DNA of 64,000 nt from Brevundimonas sp. (GCA_030693575.1 JAUYAG010000190.1:21538-85537), one strand, 5' to 3'; numbered from the stretch's first letter, positions 11,070 through 38,188 are shown. The notes: generated from the sequence alone by a model not told the origin. Numbers and translations are program-made.

Positions 11070-11073
<4 letters not shown>

Positions 11074-14787: not shown

Positions 14788-14810
14788 TTGATCCCCCAAG
14801 GACAACATTA

Positions 14811-18079: not shown

Positions 18080-18210
18080 GCTTCTCTCCCTCAGGGCTCC
18101 AACCCGAACGGGCGAGACCATGACCCAGCCTGAGAAGCGTCACAACCTACCTGCGCGTGACAAAGAGTTCATGCTGCGGCCCGTCGCGCGGGGCGGAGTC
18201 CGACGCCCGC

Positions 18211-22950: not shown

Positions 22951-23420
22951 GGTGCGTCACCGGCTTTCAGAATGTCTGCGAGCGCGCCGCGCTCCTCGGC
23001 CGACAGCGGCGCGGGATCGGCGCCGCCGGCGCGACTGCGGCGTCTCAGATAGAGGGCGAGGCCGATGCCGCCGGGGATCAGCACCAGCAGCGGCGCGCTC
23101 CACAACAGGATGGTCTGCAGGTCCAGCGGCGGCTTCAGCAGGACGAAATTGCCGTAGCGGGCGACGATATAGGCCATCACCTCCTCGTCGGTGTCCCCCG
23201 CCGTCAGCCGCTCGCGCACAATGGCCCTCAGGTCGGCGGCGAGCGGCGCGTCAGAGTCGTCGATCGACTGGTTCTGGCAGACGACGCAGCGCAGTTCCTG
23301 GCTGATCGTCCGCGCCCGCGCCTCGAGCACGGGATCGGCCAGCTGCTCTTCCGGCAGCACCGCCGCCACGGGCCCCGCGATCAACAGGGCGCAGAACAGG
23401 CCGAGGACGAAACGTCTCAT
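22947..23420 (-). CDS. ccmH: Cytochrome c-type biogenesis protein CcmH (CycL)
   Basis: Signal peptide plus the LRCVVCQNQSIDDS motif (CxxC) and a C-terminal TM. The real start is MRRFVLG at 23420, not the 339-aa ORF-track start. Confidence 0.85.
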   Translation of the reverse strand: MRRFVLGLFCALLIAGPVAAVLPEEQLADPVLEARARTISQELRCVVCQNQSIDDSDAPLAADLRAIVRERLTAGDTDEEVMAYIVARYGNFVLLKPPLDLQTILLWSAPLLVLIPGGIGLALYLRRRSRAGGADPAPLSAEERGALADILKAGDAP

Positions 23421-23953
23421 GTCTCGTTCTCCAGTCGGTCCAGCATGGGCTTCAGCGTCTCCGTCCAGACCTCGGGGGTGATCGGACCGACGTGGCGGTA
23501 GCGGACCCGGCCGTGTCCGTCGATGACGAAGGTCTCGGGCGCGCCTGTGACGCCGAAATCGATGCCGGTGCGGCCGCGCGGGTCCGAACCGATCAGGGTG
23601 TAGGGATTGCCCCGCTGGGCCAGCCATTCGGCCCCGTCGGCCGGCTCGTCCTTCCAGTCCAGCCCATGGATGGTCACGCCCTGCGACTGGAGACGCAGCA
23701 GCATCGGATGCTCGATGACGCAGGCCACACACCATGAGGCGAAGACGTTGAGCAGCACAGGCTTGCCAGTGAAGTCCGACGACGCCAGCCCCACGGTATC
23801 CTCGGGCGTCAGACCGGGCAGGTCGAAGGTCGGGATCGGCCGGTCGATCAGCATGGACGGCAGGATGCTGGGATCGCGACGAAGGCCCAGACCGAGGGCC
23901 GCGGCGACCATCAGGAACAGGGCGATCGGAATGATGAAGGCCAGCCGCCTCAT
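23417..23953 (-). CDS. ccmG: Thiol:disulfide interchange protein DsbE/CcmG
   Basis: N-terminal anchor and thioredoxin-fold motif FASWCVACVIEHP. Confidence 0.85.
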   Translation of the reverse strand: MRRLAFIIPIALFLMVAAALGLGLRRDPSILPSMLIDRPIPTFDLPGLTPEDTVGLASSDFTGKPVLLNVFASWCVACVIEHPMLLRLQSQGVTIHGLDWKDEPADGAEWLAQRGNPYTLIGSDPRGRTGIDFGVTGAPETFVIDGHGRVRYRHVGPITPEVWTETLKPMLDRLENET

Positions 23954-25929
23954 GCTGCCGCCTCACCGGTTTTTGACGGGGCAGTCTTGCCGGCGGGCAT
24001 GGCCAGCCGCAAACGGCGGTCAGACAGCGACAGGCCGCCGCCCAGGGCCATGATCATGGCCCCGCCCCAGATCCATCCGACCAGTGGATGCCACCACAGC
24101 CGGACCGTGGCGGCCCCCAGGGTCGCGCTCTCCCCCACCGAAATATAGAGATTGCCCATCGCCTCGCCGTGGATCCCGGCCTCGGTCGTCTGGGTCTGGC
24201 TGGACGGATAGAAACGCTTCTCGGACACCATCAGATACGGCCGGCCCCGCCCCTCGATGCGGAAACGCCCCTGCTCCGCCTGATAGTTGGGGCCCGTCGC
24301 CGGGCCGAGGGCATCGAGCGTGATGCGGCGTCCGGCGAACTCTATGGTCTGGCCGGGAAGCATGGTCACGACCTCGCTGTCCGTCCAGGCGGTGATGGCC
24401 GTAATCCCGATGGTGCTGACGCCGAGGCCCGCGTGCGCGATCGCGACGCCCCAGACCGCCAGAGGCGTGGTGCGGATCAGTCGGCCGGTTTCGGCGCCCT
24501 TGCGACCCAGTCCCCAGCGCCGCACCAAGAGCATGACGGATGCCGCAACCAGCCAGACCCCGAGCGCGATCCCCAGGGCCGCCCCGAGGTTGGCCAGGCC
24601 GAACGCGACCGCACCGACGCCCGCGACCACGATGGTAATGATGATCGGCCAGCGCAGCCGCATCAAGGCCGCCCGCGCCGTGTCGCGCTTCCAGTTCAGC
24701 ATCGGCCCGAATGCCACCAGCACCAGCAGCGGGATGAACAACGGAACGAAAGTCATATTGTAGTAGGGAGGCCCGACCGAAATCTTGTCGCCGTTCAGCA
24801 CATCGATGAACACCGGATAGAAGGTGCCGAGGAAGACCGTGGCCGTCGCGGCCAGCAGGAACAGGTTGTTCAGGGTGATCCCGGCCTCGCGCGACAGGGG
24901 CGAAAACAGGGCCCCCGTGCGCATCGACGGGGCCCGCCAGGCATAGAGGGCCAGCGCCGCCCCCGTCGCGATCAGGATGAAGACGAGAATATAGGCCCCG
25001 CGCTCCGGATCGACGGCGAAGGCGTGCACACTTGTCAGCACGCCCGACCGGACCAGGAAGGTACCGATCATGCTGAGCGAGAAGGTCAGGACCGCCAGCA
25101 GGATGGTCCAGCTGATCAGCGCCCCGCGTTTTTCAAGGACCATCGCCGAGTGCAGCAGGGCCGTACCCATGAGCCAGGGCATCAGTGAGGCGTTCTCGAC
25201 CGGGTCCCAGAACCACCAGCCGCCCCAGCCGAGCTCATAATAGGCCCACCAGCTGCCCAGGGCGATGCCGATGGTCAGGGAGACCCAGGCGGACAGAACC
25301 CAGGGACGGACCCAGCGGGCCCAGGCCGCATCCACCCGCCCCTCGATCAGGGCCGCGACCGCAAAGGCGAAGGCAACCGAAAACCCGACATAGCCGAGGT
25401 AGAGCAGCGGCGGATGCATGACGAGGCCGGGGTCCTGCAGCAGCGGGTTCAACTCCGTGCCGTCCAGGGGAATGGGGCTCAGCCGCGAGAAGGGATTGGA
25501 AGTGAACAGGCTGAAACCGATAAAGGCCGCGCTGAGCATCCCCTGAACCGCCAGCACCCGTGCCTGCAGCGTCTCGCGCAGGGAGCGGCCGAAGAAGGCG
25601 AGAGCACCACCGTGCAGGGCGAGGATCAGCACCCAAAGCAGCATGGAGCCCTCATGGCTGCCCCAGGTGGCGGCGATCCGATAGGGCAGAGGCTGGGTGC
25701 TGTGACTGTGTTTGGCGACCAGCTCGACGGAAAAATCCATCGTCACATAGGCCGTGGCCAGGGCTCCGAAGGCCAGGGTGACAAAGGCCATCTGGAGCAG
25801 GGCTGAAGTCCGTCCGAGGGACATCAGGACGGGATCGCCGCGGTGCGCGCCCAGCAGGGGGGCGACTCCCTGGATCAGTCCGAGCATGAAGGCGAGGATC
25901 AGCGCCAGCTGGCCGATTTCCGCGCTCAT
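23950..25929 (-). CDS. ccmF: Cytochrome c haem lyase subunit CcmF
   Basis: 659 aa and polytopic. The WGGWWFWDPVENAS tryptophan-rich (WWD) motif is present. Confidence 0.9.
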   Translation of the reverse strand: MSAEIGQLALILAFMLGLIQGVAPLLGAHRGDPVLMSLGRTSALLQMAFVTLAFGALATAYVTMDFSVELVAKHSHSTQPLPYRIAATWGSHEGSMLLWVLILALHGGALAFFGRSLRETLQARVLAVQGMLSAAFIGFSLFTSNPFSRLSPIPLDGTELNPLLQDPGLVMHPPLLYLGYVGFSVAFAFAVAALIEGRVDAAWARWVRPWVLSAWVSLTIGIALGSWWAYYELGWGGWWFWDPVENASLMPWLMGTALLHSAMVLEKRGALISWTILLAVLTFSLSMIGTFLVRSGVLTSVHAFAVDPERGAYILVFILIATGAALALYAWRAPSMRTGALFSPLSREAGITLNNLFLLAATATVFLGTFYPVFIDVLNGDKISVGPPYYNMTFVPLFIPLLVLVAFGPMLNWKRDTARAALMRLRWPIIITIVVAGVGAVAFGLANLGAALGIALGVWLVAASVMLLVRRWGLGRKGAETGRLIRTTPLAVWGVAIAHAGLGVSTIGITAITAWTDSEVVTMLPGQTIEFAGRRITLDALGPATGPNYQAEQGRFRIEGRGRPYLMVSEKRFYPSSQTQTTEAGIHGEAMGNLYISVGESATLGAATVRLWWHPLVGWIWGGAMIMALGGGLSLSDRRLRLAMPAGKTAPSKTGEAAA

Positions 25930-26051: not shown

Positions 26052-28502
26052 GTGGTGGAGGGGGTCCATCGGATCGCCATCTTGGGCTCTGGGCCCGCCG
26101 GTCTGAGTGCGGCCGCGCACGCGGCTGCCCGCGGCATGAGCCACATCCTGCTCGAGAAGTCGGATCACCTGTCGGACACCATATTCCGCTACCAGCGCGG
26201 CAAGCACATCATGGCCACGCCCAGCCAGCTGGTTGTGCGTGCCGATGTCAGTTTCGAGCCCGGCAAACGCGAGACCATTCTCGACACCTGGTCGAACGAG
26301 GCGGCGAAGCACAGGGTCAACGTCCGCTACCACGCGGAGGTCAAATCCATCACGGGCGCCAAGGGCAATTTCAGCATCGCCCTGTCAGACGGCTCCGTGG
26401 TCCGCGCCGAGACGATCGTTCTGGCCATCGGCACCCAGGGCAACCCCAACCTGATGTCCTGCGAGGGCGGCGGGCTGTCCCACGTCCAGTACCAGCTCGA
26501 CGACCCCGCCGAATATGTCGACGAACACATCTGCGTCGTCGGCGGCGGCGATGCCGGCATCGAGAACGCCCTCGGTCTGATCGCCGATCGGGCCCAGGGC
26601 AATACGGTCACCCTCGTCAACCGGGGCGCCGACTTCGCCCGTGCCAAGGAGGCCAATGCCAAGGCCCTGCTGGCGGCGCAGGAAGCGGGCCACATCACCC
26701 TGCTGACTACGGCAGAAACCACCCTGATCGAGCCCGGCTGGATCACGGTCGACACCCCTGAAGGCGCGACCCGTTTCCAGTGCGATCGGGTCATCGCCCG
26801 CCTCGGCTCGGCCCCGCCGCGGAAATTCGTGGAATCGATCGGGCTGGAGTTCACAAGCGCCGCCCGCGAGGCCTTCCCCAAGCTGTCGCCGACGTTCGAA
26901 AGCACCGTGCCGGGCATCTATGTCATCGGGGCGTTGGCCGGCTATCCGCTGATCAAACACTGCGTCAACCAGGGCTATGACGTCGTCGAATACATCGGCG
27001 GCGCCGTCGATCTGAAGCCGGCCGACGAGCCCATTCTGGAGGCCCGGCTGAAAGGCCTGCCCGGCAACCGTTCCGTCGCCCAGTGGCTCGAGTTCCTCCG
27101 CCAGGAGATCGAGATCCTGCGCGGCCTGTCGCCGCTTCAGATGCGGGAATTCCTGCTCGATTCAGACGTGCGCGCCTTCAACGCGGGCGACGTCGTCTTC
27201 AAGCGCAACTCGATCGGCTCATCGCTGTTCGGCATCGCCTCCGGTTCGGTCGAGGTCGAGGTCGGTGCCGGCAAGAAGCGGATGACCGTCCCGATTCCGC
27301 GGGGCTCGATCGTCGGCGAGGTCGGTCTGATTTCCGGACGCCCTCGCGGCGCGACGGTGCGGGCGGCGGAGCCTTCCATCCTGCTGGAAATCCCGCGCAT
27401 GGCCGCCCTGCGCCTGATGGCCTCGGTCAAGGAGGCGCGCGACACCGTCAACCGCATCACCACCGAACGCCAGCTGCTGCAGATGTTCGGCTCAGGGCTG
27501 ACCCCGGCAGACCTGACCGATGTGCTGGAAACGGCGGAAATCCGTCAGGTGAAGACCGGCGAAGCGATCATCCGAGAGGGCGAGGACGGCTACGACATCT
27601 TTGTCGTCCGCTCGGGAAGCATGGTCGTCGAGAAGGAGATCGGCGGAAAGCCGGTCTTCCTGTCCTACCTCCCGGCGGGCTCCTACGTCGGGGAGATGGC
27701 CCTGGTCGACGGCGGGCGGCGCAGCGCCACGGTCCAGGCCGCGATCCGTTCCGAAGTGGTCAGGCTGGACGGCGACCGCTTCCGCGCCCTGCTCAGGCGC
27801 AAGCCGGAGCTGGAGGAGAAGCTCCGCGCGGATATGGCCGACCGTCGCAAGGTCAACGGCTATATCGAGGAGCAGAAGGGCAAGTTCGGCGACGTCGTCG
27901 ACATGTACAGCGCGGTCGCGGACTTCCTAGTCGACCAGGGCATCGGCGAGGCCACCGACGTCCTGCTGATCGACGAAACCCTCTGCATCGGCTGCGACAA
28001 CTGCGAAAAGGCCTGCGCCGACGTTCACGACGGCCTGTCGCGGCTGGATCGCGAGGCGGGCCGCACCTACGCCCATCTGCACGTTCCGACCTCGTGCCGG
28101 CACTGCGAACACCCGTACTGCATGACCGACTGCCCGCCCAATGCGATCCATCGCGGGCCGGACGGCGAGGTCTTCATCGACGAGACCTGCATCGGCTGCG
28201 GCAACTGCCAGCGGAACTGTCCCTATGACGTGATCCGCATGGACTCGCGGCCGCCGAAGAAGCCGGACCTGATCTCCTGGCTGCTGTTCGGTGTCGGACC
28301 CGGGCCGGGCGAGCCCGACAAGGCCTGGCGGGCGAAGAACAAGGCCAAGGGTGCCGAACCGCCCAAGGTCGCCATCAAATGCGACATGTGCATCGGCAAG
28401 GCGGGCGGCCCGGCCTGCGTGCGCGCCTGTCCGACCGGGGCGGCGATCCGGGTCTCGCCCGAAGAGTTCCTGACCGTCAAACGCATGAACAGGGGCGACT
28501 AG
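26052..28502 (+). CDS. Multidomain redox protein: FAD/NAD(P)-binding oxidoreductase + two cyclic-nucleotide-binding domains + four-cluster [4Fe-4S] ferredoxin module
   Basis: Two dinucleotide folds (ILGSGPAG; VVGGGDAG). Two CAP-effector-type domains carry phosphate-binding cassettes (GEVGLISGRPRGATV; GEMALVDGGRRSATV). Four Cys clusters are present: CIGCDNCEKAC, CRHCEHPYCMTDCP, CIGCGNCQRNCP and CDMC...CVRACP. There is no signal peptide, so it is predicted cytoplasmic. Confidence 0.8.
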   Translation: MVEGVHRIAILGSGPAGLSAAAHAAARGMSHILLEKSDHLSDTIFRYQRGKHIMATPSQLVVRADVSFEPGKRETILDTWSNEAAKHRVNVRYHAEVKSITGAKGNFSIALSDGSVVRAETIVLAIGTQGNPNLMSCEGGGLSHVQYQLDDPAEYVDEHICVVGGGDAGIENALGLIADRAQGNTVTLVNRGADFARAKEANAKALLAAQEAGHITLLTTAETTLIEPGWITVDTPEGATRFQCDRVIARLGSAPPRKFVESIGLEFTSAAREAFPKLSPTFESTVPGIYVIGALAGYPLIKHCVNQGYDVVEYIGGAVDLKPADEPILEARLKGLPGNRSVAQWLEFLRQEIEILRGLSPLQMREFLLDSDVRAFNAGDVVFKRNSIGSSLFGIASGSVEVEVGAGKKRMTVPIPRGSIVGEVGLISGRPRGATVRAAEPSILLEIPRMAALRLMASVKEARDTVNRITTERQLLQMFGSGLTPADLTDVLETAEIRQVKTGEAIIREGEDGYDIFVVRSGSMVVEKEIGGKPVFLSYLPAGSYVGEMALVDGGRRSATVQAAIRSEVVRLDGDRFRALLRRKPELEEKLRADMADRRKVNGYIEEQKGKFGDVVDMYSAVADFLVDQGIGEATDVLLIDETLCIGCDNCEKACADVHDGLSRLDREAGRTYAHLHVPTSCRHCEHPYCMTDCPPNAIHRGPDGEVFIDETCIGCGNCQRNCPYDVIRMDSRPPKKPDLISWLLFGVGPGPGEPDKAWRAKNKAKGAEPPKVAIKCDMCIGKAGGPACVRACPTGAAIRVSPEEFLTVKRMNRGD

Positions 28503-28506: not shown

Positions 28507-29379
28507 TTGGCGAAGACAGCGAAAACAGGCGAACGCTCCAATCCCGGCCAGCACGACGGCTTCCTTGGCTACAGGAATTTCCGTTGGGCCTGGCGCGCCG
28601 GCGCGCTGTGCGTGATCGCCATCGCGGCCTATTTCCTGATCGACGCCGAGCCGCGTCCCAACGGCGGCAGCGTCTTCGGCTATGTGGCCGGGACGATCGC
28701 GGCACTGCTGGTGCTCTGGCTGACCCTGCTGGGCCTGCGAAAGCGCGCCATCACCTCGGGCGACTGGTCGCTGAAGGCCTGGGTGTCGGCCCATGTCTAT
28801 CTGGGCCTGGCCGTGATGGTCGTCGCGACCCTGCATTCGGGCTTCCAGTTCGGCTGGAACGTCCACACCCTGGCCTACGGCATGATGGTGCTGGTGGTTG
28901 TCTCCGGCCTGTTCGGCATCACCGTCTATGCCCTCCTCCCCCGCTACCTCAGCCGCAACCGCGGCGAGACCACCCAGAAGCAGATGCTGGAGACGCTCAA
29001 GGCGCTGGACCGCCAGATCAATGAGGCGGCCCAGCCGCTGTCCGAGGCGCAGGCCCGGGTGGTGCAGATGTCGCTCGATGACAGCCGGGTCGGCGGCCAC
29101 CTGTGGCGGCGGCTGTCCGGCGGACGCGGCGGCTGCGGCAACCGACGCGCCCTGTCGCGCCTGAAGGGCCTGCGTCGTCAGGCGACGGACGTCGAACTGC
29201 AGATGCTCGACCGGATCGAGGAACTGCTGCAGCGCAAGGCTGCCGCCCTCGCCCAGGTCCGTCGCCACCTGCAGATCCGGGCCTGGCTGAGCGTCTGGCT
29301 GGCGGTCCATGTGCCGGCCACCATCGCGCTCATCGCCGCGATCACCGCCCATGTCTTCAGCGTCTTCATCTACTGGTGA
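28507..29379 (+). CDS. His-rich 5-TM membrane protein (candidate b-haem / transmembrane electron carrier)
   Basis: TTG start 4 nt after the upstream stop. Four N-terminal TM helices, a soluble loop of about 110 aa, and a fifth TM. His residues sit inside the TM segments (SAHVYL, ATLHSG, VHTLAY, AVHVP, TAHVF). Confidence 0.65.
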   Translation: MAKTAKTGERSNPGQHDGFLGYRNFRWAWRAGALCVIAIAAYFLIDAEPRPNGGSVFGYVAGTIAALLVLWLTLLGLRKRAITSGDWSLKAWVSAHVYLGLAVMVVATLHSGFQFGWNVHTLAYGMMVLVVVSGLFGITVYALLPRYLSRNRGETTQKQMLETLKALDRQINEAAQPLSEAQARVVQMSLDDSRVGGHLWRRLSGGRGGCGNRRALSRLKGLRRQATDVELQMLDRIEELLQRKAAALAQVRRHLQIRAWLSVWLAVHVPATIALIAAITAHVFSVFIYW

Positions 29380-29386: not shown

Positions 29387-31237
29387 ATGACCCTTGTCCT
29401 TCGCCAGGTGACACGCCGCGTAAGCGGGGCCGAAATCGTCCGGGAAAAGGTCCTGCCGACCGACGTCGCGCGCATCGGACGCGGCGCGGACTGCGAGATC
29501 CGTCTGCCCGATCTGGCGGTCAGCCTGCACCACGCCACCCTGACCCTGACCGGACCGGGACAGGTCAGCGTCGTCTCCGCCGGGCGGGAGCCGTTCGGCG
29601 TCGACGGCCGGTTCGTCACCCGGACCGACATCGACGTCAGCCGGGCCCCGCGTCTGACCTTCGGCGATCACATCCTGACGCTGGCGGCCGGCGACGGCGG
29701 CCGCATCCTGATCAACCTCGCCGCCTCGGAACCGGCCGAGGGCGAGTCCTCGTCCGGTGTTCCGGCGGGCGGCGTCATCCCCAAGGCCCGCATCTTCGGC
29801 CGTCGACGGATCGCCTGGACCCTGGGTCTGGGGATCGTTGCGCTCTGCCTGCTCTGGCCGCTGGCGGCCTTCCACGGCCACCTGAAGGCCCGGATCGATC
29901 CGGACCAGCAGTGGTCAACCGGCCCACTGTCGTCCGCCCACGCCTTCCTGGAAGACGACTGCCAGGCCTGCCACCAGGAAGCCTTCGTCGCGGTGACCGA
30001 TGCGTCCTGCAAGTCCTGCCATGCCGGCGATCAGACCCCGGCCATGATGGCCGCCGCCGCAACCTCCGTGCGCCGGGCCGGCTCGCCGGACACGCTGTCG
30101 TTTGTCAGGGACCACGCGCCTCGCGGCCGGATTCTCTGGGGCGCCCCGCCGCCGGCAGGGATCACCGGACAGACCACCGCCTGGTTTCGGCGCGCCTTCA
30201 ATCTGCCCGAGCAGCGCTGCGCCAGCTGCCACGTCGAACACGTCGCCAACCCGGTCGCCGGCAGACCGCCCGAGCCGATTCCGACGCTGACACCCACCCA
30301 GACCTGCATCCAGTGCCATACGGGCCTGACCCATCGGCTGAAGGACACCGACCTGGCCGATGCGCCGTCCTGGGCCCGCCATCCGAATTTCCGCCCCACC
30401 CTGCCCGGCCCCGCCGGTCTGACCCGGGTGTCACTGGACAGCCGCCCGCGCGAGGCGTCCGGCCTGACCTTCCCGCACGATCTGCACCTGTCGCCCGGCG
30501 GCGGCCCGGCGCGCATGGCCCAGACCCTGGGAGGGCGCGGCTATGGCGCGGCCCTGACCTGCGCCAGCTGTCACCGGCCCGATGCGGACCAGACGGGCTT
30601 CGCGCCCATCCAGATGGAGCGCGACTGCGCCAGCTGCCACTCCCTGTCGTTCGCCACGCCCGGCGGCGTCCGCCAGTTGCCGCACGGCGAGCCGGGCCAG
30701 GTGGTCGCCGCCCTGATGGCCTGGCAGGGACGCGGCCCCGTCGCCGGTGGCGCAACCTCGCGGCGGCGGCCCGGCGAGGCCGGTGAAGGCGGACCCGGCC
30801 CGGGCGGCTCGCCCACGGGCGCCAGCGCGGTCAACACCGTGGGCGGCGCCTTTGGCCCGCGCGGAGCCTGTTTCGACTGTCACACCATCTTCCGGACACC
30901 GACCATCCGCTTCACGCCGGTCCGGCTGCCCGGCGACTTCCTGAGCCGCGGGGCCTTTGACCACAGCGTCCGCGAACACCGCGTCGACCGTCAGGGCCAG
31001 CCGTCCTGCGCCCAGTGCCACGCCGCGGCGACATCGGGCTCAGCGACCGATCTGCTGCTTCCGTCGGTCACCGAATGCGTCGAATGCCATGGCCAGACAA
31101 CGGCTCGCTCGCCGACTCCGGCGCCGGCCAATTGCGAGACCTGCCACAGCTTCCATGCGCCGTCGCACCCGACGCCGAAGCCGCCCCGCCCGAACTTCAG
31201 CGCACTGCCGGCGCCAAGGGCTCAGACCACACCATAG
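29387..31237 (+). CDS. FHA domain - TM anchor - decahaem c-type cytochrome
   Basis: Start MTLVLRQV... at 29387. The N-terminus is FHA-like (ARIGRGADCEIRLPDLAVSLHHATL...FGVDGRFV). A TM helix follows (IAWTLGLGIVALCLLWPLAAF). Then 10 CXXCH motifs, counted by eye: CQACH, CKSCH, CASCH, CIQCH, CASCH, CASCH, CFDCH, CAQCH, CVECH, CETCH. Confidence 0.8.
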   Translation: MTLVLRQVTRRVSGAEIVREKVLPTDVARIGRGADCEIRLPDLAVSLHHATLTLTGPGQVSVVSAGREPFGVDGRFVTRTDIDVSRAPRLTFGDHILTLAAGDGGRILINLAASEPAEGESSSGVPAGGVIPKARIFGRRRIAWTLGLGIVALCLLWPLAAFHGHLKARIDPDQQWSTGPLSSAHAFLEDDCQACHQEAFVAVTDASCKSCHAGDQTPAMMAAAATSVRRAGSPDTLSFVRDHAPRGRILWGAPPPAGITGQTTAWFRRAFNLPEQRCASCHVEHVANPVAGRPPEPIPTLTPTQTCIQCHTGLTHRLKDTDLADAPSWARHPNFRPTLPGPAGLTRVSLDSRPREASGLTFPHDLHLSPGGGPARMAQTLGGRGYGAALTCASCHRPDADQTGFAPIQMERDCASCHSLSFATPGGVRQLPHGEPGQVVAALMAWQGRGPVAGGATSRRRPGEAGEGGPGPGGSPTGASAVNTVGGAFGPRGACFDCHTIFRTPTIRFTPVRLPGDFLSRGAFDHSVREHRVDRQGQPSCAQCHAAATSGSATDLLLPSVTECVECHGQTTARSPTPAPANCETCHSFHAPSHPTPKPPRPNFSALPAPRAQTTP

Positions 31238-32580
31238 GCCAGCATCGCCTCGGCGACCTTCTTGAAGCCCGCGATATTGGCACCGCGCACATAGTCGATG
31301 CGCTGGGTCCCGGCCACGCCGCCGTATTCCACACAGCGCTGATGAATCCCGCGCATGATGTCGATCAGGTGCTGCTGGAGCTCGGCCTCCTTCCAGGCGA
31401 TCCGCCCCGAGTTCTGGCTCATCTCCAGACCGGACACCGCCACGCCGCCGGCGTTGGCGGCCTTGCCGGGCGCATACAGAATGCCCGCCGCCTTGAACAC
31501 GTGCACCCCCTCCAGATCGGTCGGCATATTGGCGCCCTCGGACACCGCCATGCAGCCGTTCGCCACCAGCGTCCGGGCGTCCGCACCGTTCAGCTCATTC
31601 TGGGTCGCGCAGGGCAGGACGACGTTGCAGGGCACCGCCCACGGCCGCTGGCCCTCGTGGTAGGTGGCCCCGCGGAACTCGGTGACATAGTCCGATATCC
31701 GCCCGCGCCGCCGGGTCTTGTGCACCTTGACCCAGTCGATCCTGGCCTGGTCGATGCCGTCGGGATCGTGGATGAAGCCCTGCGAATCCGACAGGGTCAG
31801 GACCTTGCCGCCCAGTTGCACGATCTTCTCGGCCGCATGGGTCGCGACATTGCCCGAGCCGGAGATCACGGCCGTCTTTCCCGCCACGTCCTGGCCGATA
31901 TGGCCCAGCATCTCCTTGAGGAAATAGACCGCCCCGTATCCCGTCGCCTCGGTGCGGATCAGGCTGCCACCGTAGGACAGGCCCTTGCCGGTCAGCACGC
32001 CGGTGAACTGGTTGGTGATCCGCTTGTACTGACCGAACATATAGCCGATCTCACGCCCGCCCACGCCGATGTCGCCGGCCGGGACATCGATGTCCGCGCC
32101 GACGTGGCGGTACAGCTCGGTCATGAACGACTGGCAGAACCGCATCACCTCGTGATCCGACTTGCCCTTCGGATTGAAGTTCGATCCGCCCTTGCCGCCG
32201 CCCATCGGCAGGCCTGTCAGACTGTTCTTGAACGTCTGCTCGAAGGCGAGAAATTTGAGCACGCTCTCGGTCACGCTCGGATGGAAGCGGATGCCGCCCT
32301 TGTAGGGCCCGATGGCGTTGTTGTTCTGCACCCGCCAGCCCCGCTGGACGCGGATATTGCCCTTGTCGTCCTCCCAGCAGACCCGGAAGCTGATCACCCG
32401 GTCCGGCTCCGCGATGCGGCGCAGGATCTGGTAGTGGTGATACTCCTCCTTGTCCTGGATGAAGTCGAAGATGTCTTCGGCCACTTCCTGAACCGCCTGG
32501 ACGAACTCGTCCTGGCCGGGATTCCGCTTCTTCACGCCCTCGATGAACCGGGGCAGGTCGACATGGTCCGAGACGGCCAT
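31222..32580 (-). CDS. gdhA: NADP-specific glutamate dehydrogenase
   Basis: 452 aa with GLPMGGGKGGSNFNPKG and the overall Glu/Leu/Phe/Val dehydrogenase pattern. Its 3' end overlaps the convergent cytochrome gene by 16 nt. Confidence 0.9.
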   Translation of the reverse strand: MAVSDHVDLPRFIEGVKKRNPGQDEFVQAVQEVAEDIFDFIQDKEEYHHYQILRRIAEPDRVISFRVCWEDDKGNIRVQRGWRVQNNNAIGPYKGGIRFHPSVTESVLKFLAFEQTFKNSLTGLPMGGGKGGSNFNPKGKSDHEVMRFCQSFMTELYRHVGADIDVPAGDIGVGGREIGYMFGQYKRITNQFTGVLTGKGLSYGGSLIRTEATGYGAVYFLKEMLGHIGQDVAGKTAVISGSGNVATHAAEKIVQLGGKVLTLSDSQGFIHDPDGIDQARIDWVKVHKTRRRGRISDYVTEFRGATYHEGQRPWAVPCNVVLPCATQNELNGADARTLVANGCMAVSEGANMPTDLEGVHVFKAAGILYAPGKAANAGGVAVSGLEMSQNSGRIAWKEAELQQHLIDIMRGIHQRCVEYGGVAGTQRIDYVRGANIAGFKKVAEAMLAYGVV

Positions 32581-32600: not shown

Positions 32601-33521
32601 TCATGGAAGGGGATTCGGAGGGCCGTTGCCGCAGCCGCCGCCGCCCTGACTGGGGCCGCCGGGGCTCTGGATCGGGCCGCCCGCCTCGCAGCCAACAGAC
32701 GGCTCGATCGGATCAAGGCCGGGCCCGCGATCGCTGAAGAAGAGGTCGCCCGCGTCAAGGCTCGCGGACAGGACATCGCCCGCGCCGGAATCGCTGTTCG
32801 ACGTCGGCGCGGCCCTGAGCAGGGCGCTCAGCCGGGACGAGGCCTCGTCCGACAGTTCGAACGGCCCGAAGGTTCCGCCCGCCCAGGCGAACATCGCCAG
32901 GCCCGGGCGTTCGAGGGTGAACATCGTATCCCCGCTGGTGACGTCGATCGCGCCGGGCGTATCGAAGCCCGCGCCCCGCGGACCGGGTCCGCGCAGAACG
33001 ATCAGGGTGGCGTCGTCGGGTGAACCGCTGAAGGCCGGCAGGCCGGGATGGCCGGCCAGCACGGACAGGGCGTCAGGGCCGACGACCGCCTCGACCACCG
33101 TGCCACGCACGCCGATAGACGAGACAGGTGTCCGCACGGCGCCGGGCCGGGCTCCGCCGCGGCCGGACACGAAGCGGAACGCGCCGCGCGCGACCGAGGC
33201 TGACGCCCCGCCCGCCCGCCGGTCGGTATCGATCACGAAGCGGTCAATGGTCACCCGCGCGTTCGAGCCGACCGTGAAGATCGACTGGTCCCGCAGCAGG
33301 ATCTGCAACTGGCTCTGCGCGCCGCTGACGAAGACGTCGCCCGTGCGGACCTGCCCTCTCAGGGCTGCGGGCCGCAGCGCGCTTTCGCCGACGGGCTGGG
33401 TGCGGACGCTGTTGCGGATGGCGGCGTTGACGCCGACGGCCTCCTGGGCCTGGACGAACACAGGCGCAGACAGTGCGCAGGCCAGGGCGGCGACGGCGGC
33501 AAAGGTGCGAACCGGGATCAT
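32601..33521 (-). CDS. Secreted FecR-domain protein
   Basis: I chose the start MIPVRTFAAVAALACALSAPVFVQAQEA (GGAGAG 6 nt upstream). The FecR-like segment is GDVFVSGAQSQLQILLRDQSIFTVGSNARVTIDRFV. The stop lies only 20 nt before the gdhA ATG. Confidence 0.7.
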   Translation of the reverse strand: MIPVRTFAAVAALACALSAPVFVQAQEAVGVNAAIRNSVRTQPVGESALRPAALRGQVRTGDVFVSGAQSQLQILLRDQSIFTVGSNARVTIDRFVIDTDRRAGGASASVARGAFRFVSGRGGARPGAVRTPVSSIGVRGTVVEAVVGPDALSVLAGHPGLPAFSGSPDDATLIVLRGPGPRGAGFDTPGAIDVTSGDTMFTLERPGLAMFAWAGGTFGPFELSDEASSRLSALLRAAPTSNSDSGAGDVLSASLDAGDLFFSDRGPGLDPIEPSVGCEAGGPIQSPGGPSQGGGGCGNGPPNPLP

Positions 33522-33532
33522 GGTCATCTCTC

Positions 33533-34870
33533 CTAGTTGGCCGCGCCGAAGCGCCACGTCAGGCGCAGTTCAGCGCCCCAGCTGTCATAGTCCGCGAGCG
33601 GCGCGAGGGAGTCCCGCGCGCCATAGGTCAGCGCGCCCTCGACGCCCACATCCTGCCGCCAGTCACCCGTCGCTCCGGCCGCGGTGAAGGCGCTGAACGG
33701 GGCGCCGACCGCGACGCGCGCCCAGCTGCGGGTGTCTTCTCGGGCCGGCGCGGCGAAACCGATGAAGACCGGGTCGGGCGCATCATATTCCAGCCACTGC
33801 ATGCCGCCGGAAATCGCCAGATACTGGCCGCGGCGGCTGCTGGTGTCGTACCGCGCCTGAACGCCGGGACCCGAATAGCCGAAGGGTTCGTAGTCGGCCT
33901 GCTTGTCCTGCCAGCCAGCGGAGACGCCGAAGCTGGTGCGGGCGTCCAGGCGGTGGGTCATGCCGACGTTGAAATCATAGCGCCAGCCATCGCGGTCTCC
34001 ACCGATCAACAGGGCGAGGGCGTCGACGCCCGGCTCATCGAACGACTGGTTCACCGCCTCGCCCGAGATGGAGAGGGTCGTCGCGTTGCTGGTCCGCCAC
34101 CGGGCCTGGGCCTTCAGGCCGACTTCCCGCATGTAGGGATCATCAAGGAGGTCCAGCGCGCGCGCCACGGCGCTGACATTCCAGGAGTTCAGCCGGCCCG
34201 TATAGGACAGTCCGGCTTCCAGGTCCCCACGCCGCACATTCCCGTCGATGTCGTCAAAGGTCGAACGGTCGTAGCCGCCGATCGAGCCGAAGGCCGCATA
34301 GCCGGCGGCACCGTCGAGGTCGTGGGCGATGTTGAGGCGCGCGGCGAACACGGCCGCCCCACCCTCTTCGCTGACCGGCGGGCTGAAGATCGAGTCGAAC
34401 TGGGTCGTCAGCGCGCCCGCGGCGTCGTCCTCGTAGGTGACGGCGGCCGAAGCCGTGCCGCTGAACCGGGTCGTCGACCGGCTGCGCGCGATCCGTGCGC
34501 GATAGCGGGTCGCCTCCGCCCGCTGCAGGGGCGTCAGGGTCACCGGCTCCAGCAGGTCCAGCTGGTCCCGTGCGCCCTGCAGGTCATCGAGGCGGAAAAG
34601 GACGACGGCGTACAGCAATCGAGCCCCATGGCGGTTCGGGTCCGCGATCAGCACACGCTCCAGGGCGCCGGCCGCCCCGTTGAGGTCGCCGGCATCCGCC
34701 GCCTGGCGGGCGTAGGCCAGATTGAGATCGACATCGTCCGGCGCGGCCAGCACGGCGTCGAAGTCCTGGGCCGCCGCGACCCCGACCGTCGCCGCTGACA
34801 ATCCCACCACGGCCGAAACCAGCAACCCGGCCCGGAAGGCCGCCGCTGAACGAGACGCTGGACGCTTCAT
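33533..34870 (-). CDS. Outer-membrane protein: N-terminal TPR-like region + C-terminal beta-barrel (Slam/DUF560- or NsrA-like)
   Basis: Signal peptide ending VAAAQD and TPR-like helices (NLAYARQAADAGDLNGAAGALERVLIADPNRHGARLLYAVVLF). An alternating-strand C-terminal half ends in LTWRFGAAN. Confidence 0.6.
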   Translation of the reverse strand: MKRPASRSAAAFRAGLLVSAVVGLSAATVGVAAAQDFDAVLAAPDDVDLNLAYARQAADAGDLNGAAGALERVLIADPNRHGARLLYAVVLFRLDDLQGARDQLDLLEPVTLTPLQRAEATRYRARIARSRSTTRFSGTASAAVTYEDDAAGALTTQFDSIFSPPVSEEGGAAVFAARLNIAHDLDGAAGYAAFGSIGGYDRSTFDDIDGNVRRGDLEAGLSYTGRLNSWNVSAVARALDLLDDPYMREVGLKAQARWRTSNATTLSISGEAVNQSFDEPGVDALALLIGGDRDGWRYDFNVGMTHRLDARTSFGVSAGWQDKQADYEPFGYSGPGVQARYDTSSRRGQYLAISGGMQWLEYDAPDPVFIGFAAPAREDTRSWARVAVGAPFSAFTAAGATGDWRQDVGVEGALTYGARDSLAPLADYDSWGAELRLTWRFGAAN

Positions 34871-34898
34871 GTATTCCCCCAACCGCTTGCAGATTGCC

Positions 34899-34999: not shown

Positions 35000-37285
35000 A
35001 TGGGGGCGGAGCCTGAGACCGAGCGATTGAAGGAGATCGGGTCGCGCCTCGCGCGCTCCAGCCTTTCGCTTACGCGATACATCGCAACGGCCGGCCCTGG
35101 TCTGGTGGTGGGCTTGCTGCTGCTGATACTGCATATATTCCAGCCGCCGTTCGTCGGCAGCATCAGCAATCTGGTCTTCGACACCTATCAGCGCGCCTGG
35201 CCGCGTCCGTACGAGGACGCCGGGGTCCGGGTCGTCGACATCGATGACGAGAGCATCCGCCGTCTCGGCCAGTGGCCATGGCCGCGCACGGATGTCGTCC
35301 GCCTGACAGACGCTCTCACCGAGGCCGGCGCAGCGGCCATCGCCTTCGACATTGTCTTCTCCGAGCCGGACCGGACGTCGCCCGCTCGCGCCGTCGAAAT
35401 CCTGCGGCAGAACCCCGAGGCGCGCGGCGACTATGCCGAGATCGCCGCCATGACTGACCATGATGAACTGCTGGGCCAGGCCATGGGACGGGGCCCAACG
35501 GTCACCGGCTATTTCCTCACGGAGGAAGCCAACACCGCCCGGCCGGCCGAGCACGCGGGGGTCGCCGTTTCGGGGACGCCGCCGCTGGGCGTCCTGCGGG
35601 AATACAACGGTGCCATCGTCAGCCTGCCGGTGATCGGTGATCGCGCGGCGGGAGCCGGGTCTGTCAGCCTGGACGCGGGCCGGGACGACATGATCCGGGC
35701 GGTGCCGCTCATCGCCAATCTGGACGGCCAGATCATTCCCTCGTTGTCACTCGAGGCGCTCAGGGTCGCCCAGGACGCCGGCGCCGTTCTGGTCCGCAGC
35801 AGCGACGGCAGCGGCGAATGGGGTGGCGGTCCGGTCACCACCGTGCTTGCCGTCAAGACCGGCGACCTGGAGGTCCCGACCACCGACGTCGGCGAACTGT
35901 GGATGCACTACACCGCGCCCCATCCGGAGCGGATCGTGCCCGCCTGGCGGATCCTCCAGGGGGACCTGCCGGAGGCCGAGATGCGACGGCTGTTCGAGGG
36001 GCAGATCGTCTTCATCGGCACGGGTGCGATCGGCCTGCGGGACATCCGCTCAACCCCTACCCAGCAAGGCGAGCTCGGCGTCGTGATCCACGCCCAGGCG
36101 GCCGAGCAGATGATCCTCGGCAAGTTCCTCACGCGGCCCGACTGGGCTCCGGGCGCAGAGCGGATGCTCATGGTGGCGCTCTGTCTGCTGATCGCCCTCT
36201 CGGCTCCCGCGCTCGGCGCCCTGCGCGGCGGGGTGCTGGCCACGGCCGCACTGGGCGGCGTGCTGGCCGGATCGTGGCTGGCCTTCAGAAACAGCGGCGT
36301 GCTGCTGGAACCCATCTTCCCGGCGCTGGGCGTGGTCTCCGTCTACATCGCCATCACCGCCGTCTCCTTCTACCGGGAGGAGCGGGCGCGGAGTCACATC
36401 CACAACGCCTTCGACCGCTATCTGTCGCCGGAGCTCGTCGACCGGATCGCCCGCGATCCCGGCCAGCTGGAGCTCGGCGGCGAAGTGCGTCAGATGACGG
36501 TGCTGTTCAGCGACGTCCGGGGCTTCTCCCGCATCTCTGAACGCTTCGGGCCGCAGGAACTGATCGGTTTCCTCATCAACCTGCTGACGCCGATGACCGA
36601 CGTGCTCCTGGCCCGCAAGGCGACCATCGACAAATACATCGGCGACGCCGTTCTGGCCTTCTGGAACGCGCCACTCGACGACCCCGAGCACGAACGGAAC
36701 GCGGCCTTTGCGGCGCTGGAAATGCTCGAGACGCTCAAACGCCTGAACGCCGACAGCGCCCGCGATCCGGCTTGGCCCGGTCAGGTCGCGATCGGCATCG
36801 GCCTGAACACCGGCCCTTGCTGCGTCGGCAACATGGGTTCGCGCCAGCGCCTCAGCTATTCGCTGATCGGCGACACCGTTAACCTCGCCTCGCGTCTGGA
36901 GAGCCTGACCAAGGCCTATGCGGTGAACATCCTCGTCGGCGAGGACCTCGCCGCCCGCCTGCCCGACTTCGCCCTGATCGAACTGGACCTCATCCGCGTC
37001 GTCGGCCGCGACGCGCCCGAGCGCGTCTTCGCCCTGATGGGCCCGCCGGAACTGTCGTCAGACCCCGCCTTCGTTGAAACCGGGACCCGGATGGCCACCG
37101 TCCTCGAGGCGTACCGGTCCCGCGACTGGGCCGGTGCCGAGGCTGCACTGGAGAACCTGCGGGGTGCGGGTACGCTGCCGGGCCTTGAGGGCGTGGCAGC
37201 CATCTACGCCACGCGGGTTGCGGATTTCCGCGAGACCCCGCCGCCCGCCGACTGGGACGGAATCAGCCAGGCGCTGGAGAAATAG
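35000..37285 (+). CDS. CHASE2 sensor domain - class III adenylate/guanylate cyclase
   Basis: N-terminal TM, then a CHASE2-like periplasmic domain (VVDIDDESIRRLGQWPWPR, AFDIVFSEPD). Three or four TM helices follow, then the cyclase catalytic domain (MTVLFSDVRGFSRISE, KYIGDAVLAFWNAP, GLNTGPCCVGNMGS, IGDTVNLASRLES). Confidence 0.85.
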   Translation: MGAEPETERLKEIGSRLARSSLSLTRYIATAGPGLVVGLLLLILHIFQPPFVGSISNLVFDTYQRAWPRPYEDAGVRVVDIDDESIRRLGQWPWPRTDVVRLTDALTEAGAAAIAFDIVFSEPDRTSPARAVEILRQNPEARGDYAEIAAMTDHDELLGQAMGRGPTVTGYFLTEEANTARPAEHAGVAVSGTPPLGVLREYNGAIVSLPVIGDRAAGAGSVSLDAGRDDMIRAVPLIANLDGQIIPSLSLEALRVAQDAGAVLVRSSDGSGEWGGGPVTTVLAVKTGDLEVPTTDVGELWMHYTAPHPERIVPAWRILQGDLPEAEMRRLFEGQIVFIGTGAIGLRDIRSTPTQQGELGVVIHAQAAEQMILGKFLTRPDWAPGAERMLMVALCLLIALSAPALGALRGGVLATAALGGVLAGSWLAFRNSGVLLEPIFPALGVVSVYIAITAVSFYREERARSHIHNAFDRYLSPELVDRIARDPGQLELGGEVRQMTVLFSDVRGFSRISERFGPQELIGFLINLLTPMTDVLLARKATIDKYIGDAVLAFWNAPLDDPEHERNAAFAALEMLETLKRLNADSARDPAWPGQVAIGIGLNTGPCCVGNMGSRQRLSYSLIGDTVNLASRLESLTKAYAVNILVGEDLAARLPDFALIELDLIRVVGRDAPERVFALMGPPELSSDPAFVETGTRMATVLEAYRSRDWAGAEAALENLRGAGTLPGLEGVAAIYATRVADFRETPPPADWDGISQALEK

Positions 37286-37318: not shown

Positions 37319-38188
37319 ATGTTGATCGTTCAGATCACCGACATCCATATCGGCTTCGATCAGAAGAGCCGGTTCGAGATGAACAAGAAGCGTTTCCGCC
37401 AGACGGTCCAGGCGGTGACGAAGCTTGACCCGAAGCCCGATCTGATCGTGATCACCGGCGACATCGCCGACAAGGGCGACGTAGCGTCATACGAGTGGTT
37501 TCGTCAGGAAATCCAGCAGCTTTCCCTGCCCATCCTGATGTGTATGGGCAACCATGATTCACGGGCCAGCTTCAGTCAGGTCTTCCCTGATACGGCCCAG
37601 GAGGACGGCTTCATCCAGTATGTCGTCGACGACCATCCCCTGCGGATCGTGGTGGTGGACACGCTGGAGGAAGGCCGCCATGGCGGCGGCTTCTGCGAGA
37701 AGCGCGCGGCCTGGCTGGAGGCCCGCCTGGCCGAGGCGCCGCACCGGCCGACCCTGCTGGTCCTGCATCACCCGCCCATCGACACCGGCATCGAGTGGAT
37801 GACCATCGGCCCGGCCGAACCCTGGGTGCAGAGGTTCACCGACGTGGTCTCGCGCCACGGTCAGGTCGTCGGTGCCCTGTGCGGCCACGTCCACCGCACC
37901 ATCGTCACCTCATGGGCCGGCACGACCCTGACGGTCTGTCCTTCCACCGCCCCGCAGGTGGTGCTGGACCTCAAGCCGATGAACCTGGACCGTCCGGACA
38001 AGCGGCCGATGATCGCCGAGGCGCCGCCGTCGTTCGGCATTCACCGCTGGAACGGCCGCAAGCTGGTCAGCCATTTCACGGCGGTCCAGCGCTACAAGAT
38101 CCTCGCCCGCTATACGCACAAGATGCAGGCCTTCATGAAGCATCTGGCGCAGGAACGTGCCGGGACGGCCGGCCCACACCACCACTAG
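37319..38188 (+). CDS. Class III (CpdA/SpdA/GpdQ-like) metallophosphoesterase, probable cyclic-nucleotide phosphodiesterase
   Basis: Calcineurin-like motifs in order: ITDIHIG, TGDIADKG, GNHD, VLHHPP, GHVH. Confidence 0.75.
   Translation: MLIVQITDIHIGFDQKSRFEMNKKRFRQTVQAVTKLDPKPDLIVITGDIADKGDVASYEWFRQEIQQLSLPILMCMGNHDSRASFSQVFPDTAQEDGFIQYVVDDHPLRIVVVDTLEEGRHGGGFCEKRAAWLEARLAEAPHRPTLLVLHHPPIDTGIEWMTIGPAEPWVQRFTDVVSRHGQVVGALCGHVHRTIVTSWAGTTLTVCPSTAPQVVLDLKPMNLDRPDKRPMIAEAPPSFGIHRWNGRKLVSHFTAVQRYKILARYTHKMQAFMKHLAQERAGTAGPHHH

Follow-up and report, generated by a model that had tools for sequence, protein, structure and literature searches.

The locus described here lies within a 64,000-nucleotide stretch of DNA from Brevundimonas sp. 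(GCA_030693575.1, JAUYAG010000190.1:21538-85537), hereafter the window, in which positions are counted from its first letter. The subject is a set of three adjacent genes on the plus strand, designated A, B, and C. Gene A (26052–28502; 816 aa) encodes a cytoplasmic flavoprotein, as indicated by Pfam, NCBIfam, sequence motifs, and synteny. Gene B (28507–29379; 290 aa) encodes a five-helix membrane protein, a probable dihaem cytochrome b according to its histidine conservation, sub-threshold Pfam matches, and synteny. Gene C (29387–31237; 616 aa) encodes a decahaem cytochrome c with an N-terminal FHA domain and a single transmembrane helix, features read from its open reading frame (ORF), motifs, and Pfam matches. 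Only 4 nt separate A from B, and the ATG of gene C at 29387 is 7 nt past the stop of gene B. The first-pass annotation presented the product of gene C as a stand-alone fusion; it is instead a subunit encoded in a conserved operon with a cyclic nucleotide (cNMP)-binding flavo-iron–sulfur (FeS) protein, A, and the probable dihaem b protein, B. Membership in this operon thus provides the FHA domain with intrinsic candidate partners, and with second-messenger input instead of or beside phosphorylation.

The Pfam matches above threshold in gene C are FHA, Cytochrome_C7 (61.5 bits), Cytochrom_c3_2 (37.3 bits), and Paired_CXXCH. More than 200 orthologues align with their Met1 at position 29387, and the FHA region is therefore translated; a start downstream of this domain, considered earlier as a possible objection, does not apply. 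The FHA domain (residues 1–113; 29387–29725), delimited with AlphaFold2, Foldseek, and column frequencies, would be cytoplasmic. It is followed by a flexible, acidic and serine-rich linker (residues 114–138; 29726–29800), defined by its sequence and by AlphaFold2 confidence (pLDDT, the predicted local distance difference test), which drops below 50 over residues 118–133, as expected of a disordered segment; the model was built on 107 homologues. The linker ends in the basic stretch KARIFGRRR. The transmembrane helix (residues 139–169; 29801–29893) is supported by hydropathy (core 141–166), the AlphaFold2 helix, and invariant columns, and it is the only hydrophobic helix of the protein, as had been annotated, at a position slightly N-terminal to the residues 150–170 first proposed. 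Within it, R140 and P158 are invariant and W144 near-invariant in the homologue alignments, and it leads into a juxtamembrane motif that is found family-wide, D-x-Q-W-S-x-G-P-L-S-x-x-H, which includes W176 and H185. Together, R140, P158, and this motif suggest a specific interface between B and C, rather than a passive anchor, and a haem close to the membrane. A topology with the N-terminus inside and the C-terminus outside, as in the original annotation, is strongly implied by the single helix and the positive-inside rule: a signal peptide is lacking at the N-terminus, the helix is preceded by basic residues, and haem c can be attached only in the periplasm.

The periplasmic domain (residues 170–616; 29894–31234), recognized by its CXXCH motifs and additional histidines, contains exactly ten CXXCH motifs (at residues 192, 208, 278, 307, 392, 414, 495, 541, 564, and 583), the number counted in the first-pass annotation and extending, as stated there, to the C-terminus; the first of them lies 23 residues past the helix. 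Among the 107 homologues the cysteines and histidines of these motifs are invariant, save C498 and C541, which are conserved in at least 90%. Ten histidines outside the motifs are likewise invariant in this set (H185, H243, H285, H332, H364, H367, H433, H526, H531, and H590), and at 27–43% identity nine of these are invariant and one is near-invariant. This is the count required for a second axial ligand at every haem, and the pattern is consistent with ten bis-His haems, which suggests that gene C encodes an electron wire in which no haem is left open for catalysis.

That the N-terminus is a true FHA domain, as first annotated, is borne out by profile, model, and structural comparison. Pfam FHA (PF00498) matches residues 29–79 with 24.3 bits against a gathering threshold of 20.7 (E = 4.4e-5), and AlphaFold2 folds residues 1–113 into an 11-strand sandwich, with pLDDT of approximately 86–97 over residues 1–110. 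In a Foldseek search of the PDB, the top 50 matches were all FHA domains with a probability of 1.00, among them Ki67, OdhI, GarA, Rv1747 FHA-2, EmbR, CT664, and Rad53 FHA1; target TM-scores were 0.6–0.75 where the entry was a single FHA domain, and multi-domain chains (EmbR, Rad53 FHA1) scored lower. By sequence, the top PDB match was Rv1747 FHA-2 (E = 1.6e-4). A sub-threshold match to Yop-YscD_cpl was also obtained (25.5 bits against a cut-off of 33.2).

The earlier claim that this domain carries the phosphothreonine (pThr)-binding residues holds in part. Column frequencies come from an alignment of N-terminal regions, with 117 representatives each from the near and the distant homologues. 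G31, the glycine of the Gly-Arg pair, is present in 100% of both sets; R32, the phosphate-binding arginine of the β3–β4 loop, in 100% of near and 92% of distant homologues; and H49, the structural histidine, in 97% and 89%, respectively. By contrast, the position of S46, the phosphate-contacting serine of the β4–β5 loop, is Ser in 48% and Asp in 40% of near homologues, and Ser in 15% and Ala in 38% of distant ones; its replacements across the family are Asp, Ala, Gly, Leu, or Glu, with Ala the commonest residue in the distant set. The position of the loop Asn (the "NG" of the β6–β7 loop, which contacts the peptide backbone) is D73 here; it is Asp in 62% and Asn in 17% of near homologues, and Asn in 58% and Asp in 29% of distant ones. 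The window protein thus has four of the five FHA signature residues, including the serine, which stands three residues before the histidine and aligns with that of Rv1747 FHA-2, but with Asp73 in the place of the asparagine. All of these positions (G31-R32, S46, H49, and D73) sit on the canonical ligand face, and at 27–43% identity G31 and R32 are the sole invariant residues of the domain. As judged from these frequencies, selection acts on the canonical ligand face, but not on the full pThr-binding constellation.

The family to which gene C belongs is large. A word-indexed search returned at least 341 homologues, all full length, whose source names are "FHA domain-containing protein" or "cytochrome c3 family protein", and when representatives of clusters at 50% identity were searched exhaustively with HMMER, 342 clusters matched at E < 1e-30, nearly all of them with the same architecture, and 952 at E < 1e-10. 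Among the best 150 representatives, nearly all of those that are full length have the G-R...H-A signature, one helix near residues 135–142, and exactly ten CXXCH motifs. The FHA domain is therefore an obligate part of the family, being present in nearly every full-length representative. In one variant (protein P0331; locus L168, 620–2704), the FHA domain is preceded by a PilZ domain. Alphaproteobacterial members occur in Caulobacterales, Sphingomonadales, Rhizomicrobium, Azospirillaceae, and Rhodospirillaceae; gammaproteobacterial members in Solimonas, Algiphilus, Granulosicoccaceae, Steroidobacteraceae, and Woeseiaceae; and the named betaproteobacterial members belong to Usitatibacteraceae, with no named Gallionellaceae member among the matches listed. 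The window is Brevundimonas-like, with up to 95% identity to loci of uncultured Brevundimonas metagenome-assembled genomes and 93% to B. denitrificans.

The two partners of C have redox features of their own. The product of gene A, which has no signal peptide, contains the Pyr_redox motifs for FAD and NAD(P)H (GSGPAG at residue 12 and GGGDAG at residue 164), two Pfam cNMP-binding domains, and four [4Fe-4S] cysteine motifs of the DmsB/NrfC type at residues 645, 682, 713, and 777. In the product of gene B, five histidines (H96, H110, H120, H268, and H282) do not vary in alignments that extend to 36% identity. Four of these form pairs with i/i+14 spacing, H96/H110 on helix 3 and H268/H282 on helix 5, at matching depths; from the predicted helices and the positive-inside rule, H96 and H268 would lie toward the cytoplasmic face and H110 and H282 toward the periplasmic face. 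Such an arrangement is the classical one for two stacked bis-His b haems, seen in helices B and D of cytochrome b and in helices 3 and 5 of NOX. Ni_hydr_CYTB (prokaryotic cytochrome b561) matches 65 of 66 B members below threshold (best E = 1.2e-7; 17.8 bits against a cut-off of 30.1 for the window gene), and Ferric_reduct matches 10 of the 66, also below threshold. Gene B is thus probably a dihaem cytochrome b of a new membrane family, as far as its sequence allows us to infer.

The three genes form a conserved unit. Synteny was examined in 80 loci from genomes, with C as the anchor, in 80 from metagenomes, for which B served as an independent anchor, and in distantly sourced loci, with counts restricted to loci that had room on the contig; the B-anchored sampling yielded mainly alphaproteobacterial loci, and distant C alignments were too divergent for a pattern scan. 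Gene A lies immediately upstream of B in 64/64 genome, 50/50 metagenome, and 5/6 distant loci, and C immediately downstream of B in 73/73, 51/51, and 5/7, respectively. The trio is also present in loci where the identity of gene C is only 26–29%. In one distant locus, L168, gene A has moved to the far end of the same operon, after a gene designated G (see below), which shows that its membership does not depend on its position.

From these data, we consider it somewhat likelier than even that C is the periplasmic decahaem wire of a three-subunit inner-membrane A–B–C complex, with its FHA domain serving on the cytoplasmic side for docking or regulation. The system as a whole is likely a regulated transmembrane, and probably trans-envelope, electron conduit fed by NAD(P)H. 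Architecture, fold, residue conservation, and gene linkage are observed, and the cofactors of B, the direction of electron flow, the ligand of the FHA domain, and the final acceptor are predicted. In the proposed scheme, cytoplasmic A would take electrons from NAD(P)H to FAD and then to its four [4Fe-4S] clusters; the electrons would cross the membrane in B via two bis-His b haems, one near each face; and C, held beside B by its conserved transmembrane helix, would take them up on its membrane-proximal haem and pass them along ten bis-His c haems into the periplasm. Export of electrons from NAD(P)H in this direction would be downhill and would dissipate the membrane potential, so that the complex is likely to be tightly controlled, which would explain the signalling domains on its redox subunits. 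Through its cNMP domains, A would answer to a sensor cyclase and a phosphodiesterase encoded with it. In C, the FHA domain, tethered at the membrane face by its linker of approximately 25 residues, would bind a phosphorylated or acidic determinant via its Gly-Arg/His face, the likeliest target being A or the 110-residue cytoplasmic insert of B, and this binding would dock or gate the cytoplasmic donor. It would be phospho-independent in most lineages, and probably here too; in Nevskiales, it may be coupled to a neighboring Ser/Thr kinase and PP2C phosphatase.

A candidate for the outward continuation of this chain is a second group of genes on the minus strand of the window. Gene F (38202–42128; 1,308 aa) encodes a secreted decahaem cytochrome with ten CXXCH motifs, a signal peptide, and an LVIVD β-propeller repeat (Pfam LVIVD). 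Gene E (42136–43968; 610 aa), whose start was placed at the ATG at 43968, encodes a likely outer-membrane barrel, with a signal peptide and a C-terminal aromatic β-signal. Gene D (43968–45944; 658 aa) encodes a lipoprotein (lipobox LAGC) with repeats of the haem-binding HbpS-like family (85.7 bits in Pfam), and gene G (45941–47338; 465 aa) a c554-like cytochrome (Pfam Cytochrome_C554) with four CXXCH motifs and a conserved CX4CH. The latter, close to the N-terminus, reads SCAGSTCHG in the window and SCASTVCHG in L168, and could be a fifth haem site of unusual spacing; the orthologues of G lie at 10158–11480 in L168 and at 19590–20951 in L169. All seven orthologues of E examined have a signal peptide and end in YS[VIFM]L.[NS]L.[LF][STRL][FYW], an outer-membrane β-signal, and E has no Pfam or NCBIfam match. 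Through G and the outer-membrane module D–E–F, electrons would probably be carried to the cell surface.

The link between D–G and the A–B–C unit comes from the distant loci. In L081–L084, L087, and L168–L173, D, E, F, and G directly follow C, with sizes of approximately 650, 600, 1,250, and 440 aa, respectively. The window F is 60–62% identical to the genes found downstream of C in L081–L084 and L087, and identities to distant loci are 47–52% for E, 41–51% for D, and 35–53% for G. Gene F is found inside the available flank in 30/54 genome, 20/40 metagenome, and 5/7 distant loci. Porin–cytochrome conduits of the Mtr/Pcc type pair an outer-membrane β-barrel gene with genes for secreted multihaem cytochromes. 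In D–G, F and G are secreted multihaem proteins and E has its signal peptide and β-signal; E has no family match, and similarity to DmsE/MtrA reaches only 20–22 bits. No pertinent account of an LVIVD–decahaem module was found in the literature.

Directly after gene G lie the type II secretion system (T2SS) pseudopilin genes gspK and gspJ (47455–49310, minus strand). In Shewanella, the T2SS places decahaem cytochromes on the outer surface, and by analogy the product of gene F might be a T2SS substrate.

Between the two halves of the system, the window contains a cyclase module. It consists of genes for a FecR-domain protein, the partner of the sensor cyclase (32601–33557, minus strand; Pfam FecR), a TPR protein assigned to the same module by Pfam and synteny (33533–34882, minus strand), and a CHASE2 adenylate/guanylate cyclase (35000–37285, plus strand; Pfam CHASE2 and Guanylate_cyc). 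Directly after the cyclase gene comes that of a SpdA/CpdA-like metallophosphoesterase (37319–38188, plus strand; Pfam Metallophos), with NCBIfam scores of 161 bits for SpdA and 109 bits for CpdA, both below cut-off. In L171 and L172, the cyclase, TPR, and FecR genes run co-directionally into A–B–C, with the CHASE2 cyclase opening the operon. An orthologous CHASE2 cyclase adjoins the module in L085, L171, and L172, and in 16/54 genome and 4/40 metagenome loci. Other loci carry other regulators: a GAF-PAS cyclase in L173, an FHA-cyclase in L086, and a GGDEF-EAL protein in L087. The CHASE2 cyclase is a likely source of the cNMP sensed by A, and the cyclase and metallophosphoesterase possibly make and break this signal as a pair.

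Divergent from gene A lie the cytochrome c maturation genes ccmI, ccmH, ccmG (dsbE), and ccmF (21751–25929, minus strand), identified with Pfam and with the NCBIfam model DsbE. The 339-aa ORF called at 22947–23966 (minus strand) merges two genes, with CcmH corresponding to its C-terminal half only; the DsbE/CcmG gene (23417–23953; 178 aa) was called in the region overlapping this ORF. A ccm gene is within the flank in 47/54 genome and 32/40 metagenome loci, and also in L085. All of the A–G genes and regulatory genes of the window, about ten in number, are located at 26–47 kb, within 21 kb.

Gene C overlaps at its 3′ end, by 16 nt, with a convergent glutamate dehydrogenase (GDH) gene (31222–32580, minus strand). 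In actinobacteria, FHA proteins of the GarA type regulate GDH and glutamate synthase (GOGAT). Whether C might be tied to GDH in the manner of GarA was considered, and the idea was set aside: the two genes adjoin in many Caulobacterales loci but not outside that order, distant loci included, and their proximity is probably synteny only. The same window, which holds this gene and the cNMP module, also contains a nitrogen-assimilation block (4983–14808, minus strand), with a Crp-family regulator carrying a cNMP-binding domain (4983–5618, minus strand), the large and small subunits of glutamate synthase (6589–12527, minus strand), an ammonium transporter, and a small porin-like Gcw_chp protein. 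Three ORFs on the minus strand, at 15165–17012, 5735–6367, and 17714–18121 (615, 210, and 135 aa, respectively), have a coding-like G+C content at third codon positions and no Pfam match at E ≤ 1e-4.

Several observations weigh against a complex of A, B, and C that exports electrons. In the window, D–G are 7 kb away from A–B–C and on the opposite strand. Two loci, L087 and L169, carry B-C-D-E-F-G without an adjacent A, with the FHA domain retained; there, A is either encoded elsewhere or dispensable. At its usual place immediately before B, L087 (3021–8741) has genes for a KaiC-like protein, KaiB, and a PAS/GAF GGDEF-EAL protein. Haem binding by B rests on histidine conservation and sub-threshold Pfam matches. 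The AlphaFold2 model of B is poor (pLDDT 60), its Foldseek search of the PDB returned only coiled-coil and BAR noise (E > 0.25), and searching PDB sequences with a profile yielded no match under E = 0.3, so that structure speaks neither for nor against a dihaem cytochrome b. Finally, the outward direction of flow is inferred from thermodynamics only, and inward flow to quinone has been proposed for Fe(II)-oxidizing Gallionellaceae (bioRxiv 10.64898/2026.01.22.701106).

The alternative that survives best, unlikely as we judge it, is that the FHA domain is a genuine pThr reader, which links the cytochrome to a Hanks kinase/PP2C pathway encoded elsewhere in the genome, with phosphorylation switching electron transfer on or off as the domain recruits a phosphoprotein or is released from one. 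The true FHA fold, the invariant Gly-Arg, the near-invariant His, and the retention of Ser46 of the S-x-x-H motif in the window protein all favor this explanation, and it is opposed by the poor conservation of the serine across the family and by the Asp at the position of the loop Asn. The distribution of kinase and phosphatase genes also divides. As the first-pass annotation had noted for the window, no Pkinase or PP2C gene is found in its 64 kb by tblastn with genuine Pkinase and PP2C proteins (E ≤ 1e-3), and neither appears in Pfam scans of nearly all of its called genes; tblastn likewise found none in 80 alphaproteobacterial loci, with flanks of up to 8 kb where the contig allowed. Such genes adjoin the module only in Nevskiales, namely in Solimonas (L086) and Algiphilus (L081 and L082). 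In L086, two Pkinase genes, one PP2C gene, and one FHA-cyclase gene are located beside the module, and in all three loci the Pkinase/PP2C genes are on the strand opposite A–B–C, in line with the c554-like gene. However, the cytochromes of all five kinase-adjacent loci have Ala at the Ser position of the FHA domain.

Three further co-occurrences, in the related metagenomic loci L132, L139, and L141, were discounted as evidence for such a link. In each, a PP2C gene, a Hanks kinase gene, and a gene for a type VI secretion system (T6SS) Fha1 protein (T6SS_FHA_C) lie at positions of approximately 0.1–4 kb in the locus; they correspond to the PppA/PpkA/Fha1 pathway of the T6SS and are situated 6–9 kb upstream of A–B–C, with a DAHP synthase gene in between. 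Another candidate link fares no better: an ETTQ sequence in the cytoplasmic loop of B (residues 154–157), which recalls the ETTS phospho-site of the GarA system, is invariant in Alphaproteobacteria and unconserved in distant orthologues. A phospho-signalling input is thus plausible in one order, Nevskiales, and unsupported elsewhere. The first-pass proposal that phosphorylation is coupled to redox state therefore keeps a real FHA domain and the kinases adjacent in Nevskiales, against the unconserved serine and the absence of kinase and PP2C genes from the window and the 80 loci; the pThr interpretation is possible yet weakly supported, and a regulated electron-transfer complex with an intrinsic FHA module is the reading with better support.

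It is less probable that C is a quinone-linked cytochrome comparable to CymA, NapC, or NrfH, as has been suggested for the nonahaem cytochrome of Ferrigenium, with B as a non-redox scaffold or quinone-binding partner and A as an accessory or unrelated protein. One N-terminal transmembrane helix followed by a multihaem domain does resemble the NapC/NirT quinol dehydrogenases (bioRxiv 10.64898/2026.01.22.701106), the short distance from the helix to the first haem motif fits, and L087 and L169 lack an adjacent A. Against it, C has no NapC/NirT or NrfH match (Pfam E ≤ 1; NCBIfam E ≤ 0.01), the sole NrfH match being in another protein and far below cut-off; a scaffold would have no need of the five invariant membrane-embedded histidines of B with their dihaem pattern; and A is adjacent in 114/114 close loci and inside the operon in distant ones.

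We hold it to be slightly more doubtful still that electrons flow inward, for example from Fe(II), Mn(II), or reduced humics at the surface or in the periplasm, via F, G, C, and B to A, which would reduce a cytoplasmic acceptor, with the FHA and cNMP domains regulating uptake. Porin–cytochrome conduits such as MtoAB and PioAB do run inward. In addition, the family is common in Fe(II)-oxidizing Gallionellaceae, with 27 genomes (PMC10734462), and is expressed under all conditions in Ferrigenium (bioRxiv 10.64898/2026.01.22.701106). However, the reduction of NAD(P)+ (approximately −320 mV) from c haems would be uphill, inward movement of electrons would oppose the membrane potential, the gene set has no evident energy-coupling subunit, and the hosts are aerobic heterotrophs (such as Brevundimonas, Caulobacter, Phenylobacterium, and Sphingomonadales). 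Least likely is that the FHA domain merely caps the cytoplasmic end as a structural element, for example to secure topology or anchor stability, with no ligand or regulatory role: the degenerate pThr triad and the example of YscD-type FHA-like domains, which sit in membrane complexes without binding pThr and which the sub-threshold Yop-YscD_cpl match recalls, are countered by conservation that peaks exactly on the ligand-binding loops, by the retention of the domain in essentially all full-length members, and by one lineage in which a PilZ domain stands next to it, a sign that the N-terminus is regulatory.

The A–B–C export complex can be extended to a more specific model, which we put forward tentatively and judge less likely than not. 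The system would be a so far undescribed kind of split, NOX-like inner-membrane gate, composed of a cNMP-sensing NAD(P)H flavo-FeS protein, a new dihaem cytochrome b, and an FHA-anchored decahaem cytochrome c, that bypasses quinone, uses the FHA domain as a clutch which engages or releases the cytoplasmic donor under the control of a phosphorylated or acidic ligand, and drives a dedicated outer-membrane cytochrome conduit. If this is true, widespread aerobic Proteobacteria, including Caulobacterales, Sphingomonadales, Woeseiaceae, Steroidobacteraceae, Gallionellaceae, and others, would export reducing power to the cell surface under second-messenger control.

The architecture of gene C has been noticed before. 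In the searchable full-text literature, it is mentioned only in two sources. A pangenome table of Gallionellaceae published in 2023 lists cluster 403, "Forkhead-associated protein, 10 CXXCH", in those 27 genomes (PMC10734462). A 2026 preprint describes in Ferrigenium straubiae the "NHC", a nonahaem cytochrome with a cytosolic FHA domain (section 6.3.2), whose gene neighbors encode a five-helix membrane protein without database motif and a [4Fe-4S] protein; its authors state that the combination of FHA and multihaem domains was previously unreported and that its function is unknown (bioRxiv 10.64898/2026.01.22.701106). With its FHA domain, one transmembrane helix, 9–10 haems, and the same immediate neighbors, the NHC almost certainly belongs to the same family as gene C, a conclusion drawn from architecture and synteny. 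The hosts differ, that of the NHC being an iron oxidizer and that of gene C a Brevundimonas-like aerobic heterotroph. Gene C is thus a new member of a noticed but uncharacterized family. The preprint does not mention the histidine pattern of B, the fact that the FeS protein also has flavin and cNMP-binding domains, genes D–G, or the link to a cyclase, and the searchable literature likewise lacks the system as a whole, with its putative dihaem b subunit, cNMP-binding flavoprotein, outer-membrane module, and linked cyclase. The family offers a defined test case for the role of an FHA domain on a respiratory protein, a question raised in that preprint, and its compactness, with about ten genes in 21 kb, makes genetics and reconstitution practical.

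Several groups of known systems can be compared with this one. The FHA domain of C has its closest structural matches in GarA/OdhI, YscD, T6SS Fha1, and GltG. On metabolic enzymes, the single FHA face of GarA recognizes pThr as well as acidic sites that carry no phosphate, as in the KGD–GarA structures that are among the Foldseek matches, and it is thus a precedent for phospho-dependent and phospho-independent binding by one face. Unlike C, these proteins are soluble or are parts of secretion and motility machines, and no redox protein is joined to any of them; the gene C family, moreover, does not conserve two residues of the binding triad, Ser and Asn.

Among redox systems, Hmc, Tmc, Qrc, and DsrMKJOP of sulfate reducers join the redox pools of cytoplasm and periplasm by combining an FeS protein in the former, a cytochrome b in the membrane, and a multihaem cytochrome in the latter. 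The logic here is the same, and NCBIfam shows a weak resemblance to HmcA, QrcA, DsrO, and HmcB, but the scores of 32 bits for HmcA and 16.6 bits for QrcA compare with cut-offs of 400 and 180, respectively; in addition, A is a Pyr_redox protein with cNMP domains and no CCG domain, and is not HdrD-like, and the hosts are aerobic Proteobacteria. The path from NAD(P)H through flavin and two bis-His b haems to an outside acceptor is shared, as an analogy in which homology is not shown, with eukaryotic NOX/ferric reductases and bacterial MsrQ/YedZ. The His pairs of NOX and ferric reductases are on helices 3 and 5. In contrast to NOX, the subunits here are split, a Pyr_redox flavin domain is combined with four FeS clusters, and the acceptor would be a decahaem cytochrome c rather than O2 or Fe(III).

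The inner-membrane-anchored multihaem cytochromes c of the NapC/NirT type (CymA, NrfH) and ImcH and CbcL of Geobacter likewise feed periplasmic or extracellular chains, and CbcL joins a dihaem b membrane domain to a multihaem c domain. Here, the b-type part is a separate protein, electrons apparently come from a dedicated cytoplasmic NAD(P)H flavo-FeS subunit rather than from quinone, and an FHA domain is present, which none of the known proteins has. Membership in NapC/NirT, Hmc/Qrc, DmsE/MtrA, and ExtM/N/O was rejected, with scores far below cut-off. By its sequence, then, the system would work like transmembrane redox complexes and porin–cytochrome conduits without matching the profile of any of these named families. 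Extracellular and periplasmic electron transfer is known mainly from Shewanella and Geobacter, where the entry points CymA, ImcH, and CbcL draw on the quinone pool. The family of gene C would differ from these in an entry point apparently wired straight to a cytoplasmic NAD(P)H flavo-FeS enzyme, in a membrane protein, B, whose family has no solved or annotated relative, in the cNMP-binding, FHA, and sometimes PilZ signalling domains carried by the redox subunits themselves, and in its hosts, which are abundant Proteobacteria of soil, freshwater, and sediment not regarded as electroactive.

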